Shown in pieces: positions 28,744-30,645 of a stretch of 64,000 bases of DNA (the stretch's first letter is position 1; each line of letters begins with the position of its first letter). The position numbers were made by a program, and so were the translations under genes. The notes beneath the pieces are model-generated. The model made no database searches and was not told the DNA's origin. It saw only the letters and a program-made list of their open reading frames with translations. The stretch is from a virus. Its lineage: Duplodnaviria; Caudoviricetes. Location of the stretch: positions 64,001-128,000 of the IMG/VR virus record IMGVR_UViG_3300042997_002652; one strand, written 5' to 3'.

Positions 28744-29520
28744 TTAGCCTTGCACCCATGTCAGAGGTTGTGAATTATCAACATATCGTTTGAGTTCATC
28801 AATCAATTTCTCTATCATAGCATAGCCTTCACTTTTCATTGCTGCGCCGTTAAGTGATGTACCACCACTGGGTCCAGCAATAGTAGCAAACTTTTCTCTG
28901 GCTTCACCAATGATAGTTTTTAAAACCGCAAGTGTATAATCTTGAATCCAAGTACCAGTAGAAGGGTCTTGTAACAATGTAGCTTCAGGTCGCAGGATAT
29001 CCGCCCAAATAAGGATCTTTTCACCTGAACCCTTAAAATCACGAACTATTCTAAGTGTCTTAGATACAGGATCAAATGTATAAGTCAAGTAACCACCAAA
29101 CATTCTAGCAGCTAACTCAACATAACCAGCATAAAAATCGTAAGTAGCCAAGCCACCGGCAGAGTTATAATTAAGCAAGTAAGTATTTAATATCGCACTT
29201 GAAAATGGATCAAATGAGCTGGCGCCGGGGCCAGTTTCTAATCCAACTGTTCTACGGTATAAGCATCTTACATTAATAAATTCACTGGGAAGTGTATAAG
29301 TATCTACATTTTTTTCTATAGTAAAAAGTGTGTAAGTTTCCTGTGTGGAATTCTGCGCACGTTGTCTATATGTAGATATAGCATAATTATATGCTACTTC
29401 CAAGTGCTCAGGATCAACTTCAAGATCAATTATATTTTGACCTAATCTTAATAAACATGAATTAAATAATTGCTCTTTTAATTGAGTAAGATTAAGATTA
29501 GTTGGAATTGTTTGGATCAT
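28744..29520 (-). CDS. gp13: Neck/head adaptor protein (gp13-like)
   Basis: LRLG..IIDLEVDPEHLE...WIQDYTLA..K...GEAREKFATIAGPSGGTSLNG. Confidence 0.8.
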   Translation of the reverse strand: MIQTIPTNLNLTQLKEQLFNSCLLRLGQNIIDLEVDPEHLEVAYNYAISTYRQRAQNSTQETYTLFTIEKNVDTYTLPSEFINVRCLYRRTVGLETGPGASSFDPFSSAILNTYLLNYNSAGGLATYDFYAGYVELAARMFGGYLTYTFDPVSKTLRIVRDFKGSGEKILIWADILRPEATLLQDPSTGTWIQDYTLAVLKTIIGEAREKFATIAGPSGGTSLNGAAMKSEGYAMIEKLIDELKRYVDNSQPLTWVQG

Positions 29521-29590
29521 TTTTCATGGTTCCTTTATGTTATAACTATTTATCTGGTTACATTTAGTTTACATGAAATAATTATTCTAA

Positions 29591-29990
29591 GGGCATGGCG
29601 AGTAGATATAAAATCTACAAGCCACGGGTTATTCTTGAGGTACTTAGGCAACGATGAATTCAAACATTACAGTGGAGGATTGTCTATGTCTCACTAACCC
29701 ATAAAGGGAGTTTGCCGTATTCGCTGTTAACGTTCAAACGCTATTCACCGAGGAGTTTGAACCAGCCCAAGAGTATCTATCGCAATTACCATCTCTTGGC
29801 AACAACAACCATTTAGACACAAGAAACGTTTCTAACAAGGGTTAGACGTTTATGGCATCCCTATTCGGGGTAGTCTTGTGAATGGAGTCACTGATTTTAC
29901 TCAGTTCAAGCTTAGACTCGCTTCTATACCCACACAACACGGATTGAGGTGGGACTTGGATGTTATTGTGGCTAACACTTACCTTGCTTG
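29591..29990 (+). ncRNA. Candidate large structured non-coding RNA (class unknown)
   Basis: No convincing ORF; 43% GC (173/400) against 21% in the adjacent spacer 29521-29590; about 12 nested helices found by eye. Strand inferred from G.U pairs. Confidence 0.65.
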
Positions 29991-29998
29991 ATAAACAA

Positions 29999-30217
29999 TT
30001 ATTCTATAAGTTTAAATATCAAAAACAAATCTTTAAGGGGATGATTCCATGGATCTTTTACACCATATGCTGTACAGCCAAATCTAGTATCATCGTCTAA
30101 GTGATCTTTTCCTTTGGTATAGTTTTCCATGTCAATACAAGTAAGTACTGTACCTTCAGGAATCTTTGCTAATTCTTCTGGTGTAAAAAGATAAAGATCA
30201 TCCTCCCATTTTTGCAT
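29999..30217 (-). CDS. Small hypothetical protein
   Basis: ORF track, coupled to mazG. Confidence 0.65.
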   Translation of the reverse strand: MQKWEDDLYLFTPEELAKIPEGTVLTCIDMENYTKGKDHLDDDTRFGCTAYGVKDPWNHPLKDLFLIFKLIE

Positions 30218-30645
30218 TATAAATCATTCTCTTTTCTATTTTCAGAATAGAATGGATCAAACGTGCCGCCAGGATATCTTGCTTCAAGCTTTTTAACGTT
30301 TTCAGCAATCACATCGTTTGGATCTAAACCTAATGCTCTGCAAGCATTGATCCAATACCAAATAATATCGCCTAGTTCACGTTTCATGTGGTAAACGTTT
30401 TCATCACTCAATTCTTTACCTTGAAAAATGATTTTTTTGTTTACCTCGATAAACTCTCCGCTTTCTGCTGCTAAACCCAAACATGCAGTAATCAGCAACG
30501 GAACATTTACTGCAGGCCCAGTTACATCTTCTTTATTTTGCGAATTTAGCTCTTCACACCTTTGCTGAAAAATGTGAAAATGATTGCTTGGGTTACTAGT
30601 TACAACCTCTACAAAATCTTTGTACTTGTTTAAATCAATATTCAT
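30217..30645 (-). CDS. mazG: MazG-like NTP pyrophosphohydrolase
   Basis: LGLAAESGEFIEVNKK...RELGDIIWY...NVKKLEARY. Confidence 0.9.
   Translation of the reverse strand: MNIDLNKYKDFVEVVTSNPSNHFHIFQQRCEELNSQNKEDVTGPAVNVPLLITACLGLAAESGEFIEVNKKIIFQGKELSDENVYHMKRELGDIIWYWINACRALGLDPNDVIAENVKKLEARYPGGTFDPFYSENRKENDL

Follow-up and report, generated by a model that had tools for sequence, protein, structure and literature searches.

Large RNAs of complex fold are rare, and the few known classes include most natural ribozymes as well as GOLLD, ROOL and OLE. This work concerns a 64,000-nucleotide (nt) stretch of the genome of a virus of the Caudoviricetes, hereafter the window (bases 64001-128000 of the 266,967-base IMG/VR virus record IMGVR_UViG_3300042997_002652, coded G000 as a whole), and within it the element at 29582-29992, which lies between a mazG-like gene and a gene for a neck protein. 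On comparative sequence grounds, this element is the gene for a new family of structured non-coding RNA of ~400 nt that has no catalogued match. Like GOLLD, ROOL and OLE, the RNA has a large, conserved, multi-domain fold with invariant unpaired blocks, and like GOLLD and ROOL it is borne by phages, in which it is moreover optional cargo. However, it has no Rfam match to any of the three, measures ~400 nt against their 580-800 nt, is rich in pseudoknots and differs in architecture, and it does not lie beside tRNA genes, of which the whole genome contains none.

A first, sequence-only reading of the window had failed to assign the element to a known RNA class, and the searches agree with it. No model of Rfam 15 (4227 models) reached its gathering score anywhere in the window, none hit 29400-30200 at E <= 10, and 12 whole homologue-bearing loci gave five scattered weak hits, none consistent across the homologues; ARAGORN called no tRNA and no transfer-messenger RNA (tmRNA) across the window. 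No description of this RNA was found in the literature, with a possible overlap with the unmapped and unnamed candidates of PMC10690425.

Among the individual classes considered, tmRNA comes near in size (350-420 nt), in its several pseudoknots and in having phage-encoded examples, and the plus-strand reading of the present RNA has a Shine-Dalgarno-like GGAGGA with an AUG 7 nt downstream. This class was rejected, as neither ARAGORN nor the Rfam tmRNA models matched, tRNA-like ends are absent, and the putative tag frame opened by the invariant AUG differs between relatives, with 3 codons for the window copy and ~48 for locus L103; the helix around this AUG covaries as RNA. Group I introns, common and mobile in T4-like phages, are similar in length (250-500 nt) and in having a pseudoknotted core. 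The element is intergenic and has no split host gene, because relatives lacking the RNA keep a plain 36-69-nt spacer between intact mazG and neck genes; in addition, RF00028 gave zero hits at E <= 10 in the window copy and 12 homologues, and a P7-like candidate pairing failed in the window's subclade by our own reading of the alignment. RNase P RNA was discarded since no Rfam RNase P hit was obtained and the 5′/3′ closing stem proposed for the element fails across the family. Finally, the phi29 pRNA, likewise a phage-encoded structured RNA, was together with the neck-gene neighbour the precedent behind an idea of assembly or packaging. It is however ~174 nt long and belongs to small podoviruses, the present RNA has no Rfam match, and the neck-gene neighbour is not retained in the other lineages bearing this RNA.

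Covariation and architecture of the RNA family

In all, 69 distinct homologues were gathered from viral and metagenome contigs, which come from freshwater samples. An invariant 17-mer at 29674-29690 (GGAGGAUUGUCUAUGUC on the plus and GACAUAGACAAUCCUCC on the minus strand) was found in 79 viral contigs, 71 of which gave full-length homologues by nhmmer, and in 110 metagenome contigs, where 35 gave homologues, 17 of them new. Retrieval by the 17-mer inflates the apparent invariance of this block; 12 homologues were recovered via the neighbouring neck protein, independently of the 17-mer, and it is intact in all 12. The homologues are 386-471 nt long in the relatives and ~410 nt in the window copy.

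The alignment A1 comprises 51 sequences and 499 columns, and was examined by a scan of all column pairs and by mutual information (MI). A total of 88 curated pairs were scored, the hairpin Pa being excluded because the register of one of its arms is not constant in the alignment. In these pairs 94.5% of cells are canonical, and compensatory double changes are abundant, occurring in 45 of the 88 pairs (429 cells). When the 3′ partners were shuffled within columns, the means fell to 85.7% canonical and to 123 cells with double changes in 29 pairs, and not one shuffle out of 500 reached the observed values; when the partners were slid by 1-3 columns, 31-42% of cells were canonical and 38-86 cells showed double changes. 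RNAalifold on A1 independently predicted Pe1, Pf, Pi, Ph, Ph1 and Pk, with double changes in 25 of its 55 predicted pairs. Compensatory pairs thus exceed chance, as is generally expected of a structured non-coding RNA. The folding energy of single sequences adds little to this: the minimum free energy is -109.2 kcal/mol for the plus strand (z = -1.8) and -107.8 kcal/mol for the minus strand (z = -2.3), which is unremarkable, and the structural evidence is therefore comparative, not thermodynamic.

The same controls bear on whether the stretch is an RNA gene at all, rather than a decayed protein gene or a site acting at the DNA level (origin, pac or recombination site). A recombination-prone cargo slot and a co-evolving pair of direct repeats, both described below, could be expected of such a site. 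However, the 45 compensatory pairs include long-range and pseudoknot pairs, the loops are invariant while the stems vary, no open reading frame (ORF) is conserved across the homologues, and double-stranded DNA does not select pseudoknots. The covariation, set against the shuffled and slid controls, effectively refutes this alternative, which we regard as extremely improbable.

The conserved element, as limited by conservation in A1, spans 29582-29992, with the minus strand as the best call. Its predicted fold is one of three linked domains held by at least four pseudoknots (PK1-PK4), with several invariant loops. The end segment at 29584-29593 (AUUCUAAGGG in the plus reading) is conserved, and is a direct repeat of the sequence at 29631-29640 that includes one strand of helix Pb. 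The repeats, AUUCU(A/U)AGG and AUUCUUGAGG respectively (plus), lie ~47 nt apart, are of AUUCUU(G)AGG type and mutate in parallel in at least five lineages (L110, L090, L084, L102, L095), with an MI of 0.58 for columns 11/71; no compensating change accompanies these parallel changes in the Pb partner. The two repeats may be alternative partners of 29809-29817, or two sites for one ligand.

The hairpin Pa (29597-29623) is formed by GGC/GCC and GUAGAU/AUCUAC; one of its arms (GGCGAGUAGAU, plus reading) is invariant, while the partner arm changes register between lineages. Overlapping it, PK2 (29596-29601 with 29780-29784) pairs U-GGCGA (plus) with UCGCA in the loop of Pi; at columns 23/240, 46 sequences have C-G and 5 have U-A, and at columns 20/242, where the MI is 0.79, 34 have U-A and 16 have A-U, with almost no exceptions. 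The long-range helix Pb (29633-29640 with 29809-29817) encloses the central domain and is 95.6% canonical; it is conserved yet, alone among the long-range helices, shows zero double changes, and one of its pairs is either G.U (27 sequences) or G-C (24).

Within the central domain, PK1 joins 29652-29659 (CGAUGAAU) to 29743-29750 (AUUCACCG) inside the Pf loop, and its 8 pairs are 98.8% canonical with 3 double-change pairs (27 cells). Helix Pd (29661-64/29711-14), with double changes in 3 of 4 pairs (32 cells), encloses two hairpins: Pe1 (29671-29695), whose invariant 12-nt loop tops a stem with 3 double-change pairs, and Pe2 (29698-29708), in which CCC and GGG flank a variable loop and 95% of cells are canonical. 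Helices Pg and Pf follow at 29723-29766; Pg (GCUG/CAGC) is 100% canonical with 2 double-change pairs, and Pf (GUUCAAAC/GUUUGAAC), whose loop holds the second strand of PK1, has double changes in 7 of 8 pairs (127 cells). The hairpin Pi (29767-29799) has 7 base pairs (bp) in the window copy and a conserved loop bearing the second strand of PK2, with double changes in 4 of 5 scored pairs (50 cells).

Beyond Pb, a three-way junction occupies 29818-29880 and consists of Ph (29818-23/29875-80; double changes in 4 of 6 pairs, 52 cells), Ph1 (29824-29/29846-51; 3 of 6) and Ph2 (29855-59/29869-74; invariant GCAUC...GGUAGU); Ph and Ph1 are given by RNAalifold too. Helix Px (29885-29919; GAGUC/GACUC) carries an extra hairpin at 29890-29905 that is specific to a subclade, and from its loop PK4 is formed between 29907-29911 and 29986-29990, CAAGC pairing with GCUUG; most relatives have UUGGUC/GACCAA instead, and 5 of 6 pairs show double changes (33 cells). 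The hairpin Pk (29929-29953; CCCAC/GUGGG) is 94.5% canonical with 2 double-change pairs. PK3 (29961-29984) is a compact H-type pseudoknot of stems S1 (29961-65/29973-77) and S2 (29970-73/29981-84), S2 being shorter in the window copy (2 bp) than in most relatives (4 bp); double changes affect 2 pairs of S1 and 3 of S2 (AGGU/ACCU to GAGU/ACUC, AAGU/ACUU or GGGC/GCCC).

Eight of the eleven helices drawn in the sequence-only reading are upheld by covariation in the family. They are the core of Pa (GUAGAU/AUCUAC, 29602-18), Pe1 (AGUG-AG/CU-CACU), Pe2 (CCC/GGG), Pg with Pf (GCUG+GUUCAAAC/GUUUGAAC+CAGC), Pi (CCAAGAG/CUCUUGG), the three-way junction (CACAAGA/UCUUGUG with two hairpins), Px (GAGUC.../...GACUC with its inner hairpin) and Pk (CCCAC/GUGGG). 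The other three do not survive the comparison: the closing stem GGGCAUGG/CCUUGCUU (29591-98/29982-89) meets C.A, A.G, A.A or U.U at 4 of its 8 positions in most sequences, GGCAA/UUGCC competes with the covarying helix Pd, and AGCCACGG/UUGUGGCU is restricted to the window's own small subclade. The pseudoknots PK1-PK4 were all absent from that earlier fold.

The mazG/neck junction and its cargo

The RNA lies in the gap 29521-29998, which is flanked on both sides by minus-strand genes. As the sequence-only reading had observed, this is an ORF-free and GC-richer block between mazG and the neck genes: zero ORFs longer than 71 amino acids (aa) overlap the gap, and its GC fraction is 0.42, against 0.275-0.34 in overlapping 200-nt segments flanking either side. 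On one flank is the gene of the head-tail adaptor Ad2 (neck) protein (28744-29520, minus; phrog_211, E = 1.9e-25). On the mazG side lie first the small ORF p72 (29999-30217, minus; 72 aa), and then the gene of the MazG-like pyrophosphatase (30217-30645, minus; PF03819, 2.5e-09; phrog_229, 3.7e-42).

More than 588 relatives of the neck protein were found in viral contigs, and the best 80 loci were used, 68 of which show both mazG and the neck gene. At the junction of these two genes, 12 of the 68 carry an RNA homologue, 43 an empty spacer of ~63 nt (36-69 nt) and 13 unrelated ORFs, and the slot therefore holds changeable cargo. By the nhmmer profile there is a single copy of the RNA in the genome, at G000 93580-93984. 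Outside the uncultured viral and metagenome contigs the family was not seen: the exact 17-mer gave 59 hits in 185,579 species genomes, close to the chance expectation by our own estimate, and zero nhmmer homologues, and BLAST searches of 50,697 phage records with the window copy and one distant member gave no match, so that no cultured phage carrying the RNA was found among these records. The nearest cultured phages (Atu_ph07 and the PA5oct group) have a neck protein of only ~39% identity.

The RNA also occurs in at least two further phage lineages with different surroundings, one represented by locus L146 and the other by loci of the L102/L095/L312 type, in which the terminase is ~2 kb from the RNA. 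When the giant-phage clade, L146 and the L102/L095 type were compared, no protein neighbour common to all RNA contexts was found. The RNA is an accessory, optional cargo in a clade of uncultured T4-like giant phages; given that no neighbour is shared and most relatives lack it, it therefore behaves like a self-sufficient accessory module more than like a regulator tied to the neck gene.

The other cargo ORFs at the junction measure 67-325 aa and are unrelated (L009, L019, L025, L038, L053, L016 and others). One of them (L053:2384-2956) has a sialyltransferase-like Glyco_transf_29 match (3.2e-14), and the remainder belong to no Pfam family. An origin of the slot through homing endonucleases was rejected, as the other cargo ORFs are not homing-endonuclease genes and one is sialyltransferase-like. 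The place of p72, next to mazG, is taken by small ORFs (62-72 aa) of two families unrelated to each other, depending on the lineage (the window; L042, L058 and L011); p72 itself matches only phrog_34791 and phrog_6726, both families of unknown function. A sigma-70-like match at 30245-30216 (minus; CTGAAA, 18-nt spacer, TATAAT, 10/12) lies at the mazG/p72 junction, with its -10 hexamer overlapping the p72 start codon. In L086, L116, L132 and L153, an extra nested hairpin of ~70 nt (CCCGCATTG...CAATGCGGG) stands between mazG and the RNA, with TATAAAT before the hairpin.

Upstream of the neck gene and outside the RNA lies a T4-type late-promoter-like motif, GATAAATA (29547-29554, minus), which is conserved at every locus, whether the RNA is present or absent. 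It is embedded in an inverted repeat, for example TTTCCTGAT...ATCAGGAAA (window 29521-29560; also the 36-69-nt spacers of L004-L081), whose 3′ arm includes the ribosome-binding site of the neck gene and which is present in loci with and without the RNA. On long read-through transcripts, this inverted repeat would sequester the ribosome-binding site of the neck gene. In T4, a device of this type silences early read-through transcripts by a hairpin, and late transcripts initiate inside the hairpin.

Transcribed strand and mode of action

Based on these findings, the explanation that we favour, with moderate confidence, is that a new ~400-nt RNA family travels as optional cargo, is made as the tail of minus-strand read-through, and acts in trans. 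The slot separates the mazG cluster, of early/middle type, from the late neck genes. Early or middle transcripts probably cross the mazG/neck junction, because the late promoter and the repeat that would sequester the ribosome-binding site are there both with and without the RNA, and an RNA on the minus strand would then form the end of the mazG operon transcript. The RNA would probably be transcribed in the same direction as its neighbours, whereas plus-strand transcription seems possible at a clearly lower probability.

Evidence for the minus strand comes chiefly from loop sequences and from gene order. With tips defined by RNAfold, GNRA loops make up 7 of 18 distinct tetraloop types on the minus strand versus 1 of 18 on the plus strand, where GNRA accounts for ~3% of possible tetraloops (8/256 by our own arithmetic). 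Read on the minus strand, the optional hairpin between Pi and Pb has five different stems, four of them capped by GUAA and one by GAGA; the variable hairpin after Pb is capped by GCAA, GUAA, GAAA or UUCG, and Ph2 by UUCG, UCCG, CUCG, CUUG or GCAA; one Pe2 variant has GAAA. A raw count of all tetraloop-like hairpins, before restriction to real tips, gave 34 versus 36 for the two strands. UUAC/GUAA as a repeated binding motif was considered and set aside as not compelling (~3 per sequence versus ~1.6 expected by our own estimate). Furthermore, in all three contexts (giant-phage clade, L146, L102/L095/L312 type) the RNA runs in the same direction as the genes on either side if it is read on the minus strand. 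Pi and Pa fold more stably on this strand in 50 and 48 of the 51 sequences, respectively.

Alternatively, the plus strand could be the one transcribed. The same RNA would then be a self-contained, moron-like unit running antisense to its neighbours; the end segment 29582-29595 would provide its promoter or a 5′ leader, and the hairpin that it shares with mazG in many relatives would terminate it. We hold this to be somewhat unlikely. Several observations speak for this alternative and against minus-strand transcription. Three invariant pairs of Pb and Ph2 are G.U on the plus strand and A.C on the minus strand; in the plus reading, pair 75-292 is G.U (27) or G-C (24) and pair 312-331 is U-A (25) or U.G (20), and all five stem variants of the optional hairpin retain a basal G.U. 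The energy of the consensus structure is better on the plus strand in 45 of 51 sequences, a mild preference, Ph and Pd-Pe are more stable on it, and in the plus reading unpaired positions are 36% A versus 29% U. A hairpin abuts the plus-strand 3′ end in ~16 of 51 loci, and in those of the L103 type it is a strong terminator of mazG; such an abutting terminator leaves no room for a minus-strand promoter in those loci and fits a plus-strand unit ending there.

However, the plus-strand tips of the variable hairpins (UUAC, UCUC, UUGC, UUUC, CGAA) belong to no stable tetraloop class, whereas their complements are GNRA or UNCG loops, and the plus strand would make the RNA antisense to both neighbours in three unrelated contexts. 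Sigma-70 scans found no conserved promoter on either strand, and on the plus strand TG-n-TATTCT is present in only ~7 sequences; the end segment was also dismissed as a general phage promoter, since its motif does not recur in the genome. With the three invariant G.U pairs set aside, variable sites are balanced, with ~134 G.U versus ~115 A.C cells; a sixth pair of Pi, outside this count, is U.G on the minus and C.A on the plus strand in most sequences. Summing the mean energies of non-overlapping domains (our own addition) gives equal values of ~-72.7 versus -74.0 kcal/mol for the two strands. The sequence-only reading had taken G.U pairs to favour a plus-strand RNA antisense to its neighbours, preceded by a -10 element at 29574-82. 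Its large multi-domain structured RNA stands, and the G.U argument applies to the window copy; for the family the G.U and A.C counts balance, the -10 element is not conserved among relatives, and the plus-strand antisense orientation and its promoter are not supported here.

As for function, a minus-strand RNA could act in trans. Its stable fold might offer a scaffold, or a decoy, to a factor of the phage or of the host, or it might build an RNA-only assembly. Purely by inference, and by analogy, this would place it with the other large orphan phage RNAs rather than among regulators of adjacent genes. A function in cis can nevertheless be argued, in which the RNA would be a processing, insulator or processive-antitermination module on minus-strand read-through of early/middle transcripts into the late neck and tail genes. 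Immediately downstream of the RNA there is always GATAAATA, together with the repeat that pairs with the neck ribosome-binding site, the arrangement by which T4 silences early read-through, and in the L102 type it precedes the motif AAATAAATA and a gene block leading to the terminase. However, 43 of 68 close relatives dispense with the RNA at the same junction, the neighbours differ wholly between contexts, and known cis elements of such type are far smaller and simpler. In addition, the late transcripts would lack the RNA because the late promoter lies between it and the neck gene. We therefore judge action in cis unlikely.

It could also be considered that the RNA is a large self-cleaving, self-processing or otherwise catalytic RNA, or an RNA-only multimer held by intermolecular pseudoknots. 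Its size, its several pseudoknots and its invariant unpaired blocks are hallmarks that flag ribozyme candidates, as exemplified by OLE, GOLLD and ROOL (bioRxiv 10.1101/2024.12.08.627333, and established knowledge), and covariation does not separate intramolecular from intermolecular pairing. Against this, known ribozyme motifs went unmatched in the Rfam searches, and at 400 nt the RNA is smaller than the RNAs known to multimerise. In our estimate this reading is very unlikely.

Other structured RNAs of the genome and significance of the family

Two more structured RNAs are encoded in the same genome. The first, outside the window, is a circularly permuted (two-piece) tmRNA at G000 168987-169409 on the minus strand (locus L330, 588-1010), with the tag ANDEFALEDIRLAA; it was called by ARAGORN and scores 78.9 bits with Rfam RF04321, whose gathering score is 47. 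Among bacteria, tmRNAs of the permuted type typically belong to alpha-proteobacteria, some beta-proteobacteria and cyanobacteria, which gives a hint that the host is a cyanobacterium or an alpha- or beta-proteobacterium. The second is another orphan RNA, in a gene-free stretch of ~480 nt at G000 ~227,238-227,718 on the plus strand (locus L331, ~639-1118), after a gene of 177 aa. It resembles the 29582-29992 RNA in belonging to the same genome, in its similar size and in its gene-free position directly after a protein gene, and its being co-directional with the upstream gene was counted towards the minus-strand call above. However, the two are unrelated in sequence, the nhmmer profile of the 29582-29992 family does not match it, and it ends in a terminator of its own, a U-tailed hairpin capped by GUAA, whereas the window copy of the 29582-29992 RNA has none.

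In conclusion, this work reports a new RNA family that is confined to uncultured phages and well populated, with 69 distinct sequences, four pseudoknots and 45 covarying pairs. Its alignment and structure can now be used to build a covariance model, to synthesise and probe both strands, and in cryo-electron microscopy. More speculatively, and in our view quite improbably, the RNA might be the first representative of a new class of large functional RNAs of giant phages, either a ribozyme or a self-assembling RNA-only particle whose apparent pseudoknots join separate molecules, and one of at least two orphan RNAs that this lineage would carry as exchangeable cargo for host takeover or counter-defence. 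Given the second orphan RNA and the permuted tmRNA of the same genome, an unusually large investment in structured RNA may characterise this phage lineage.

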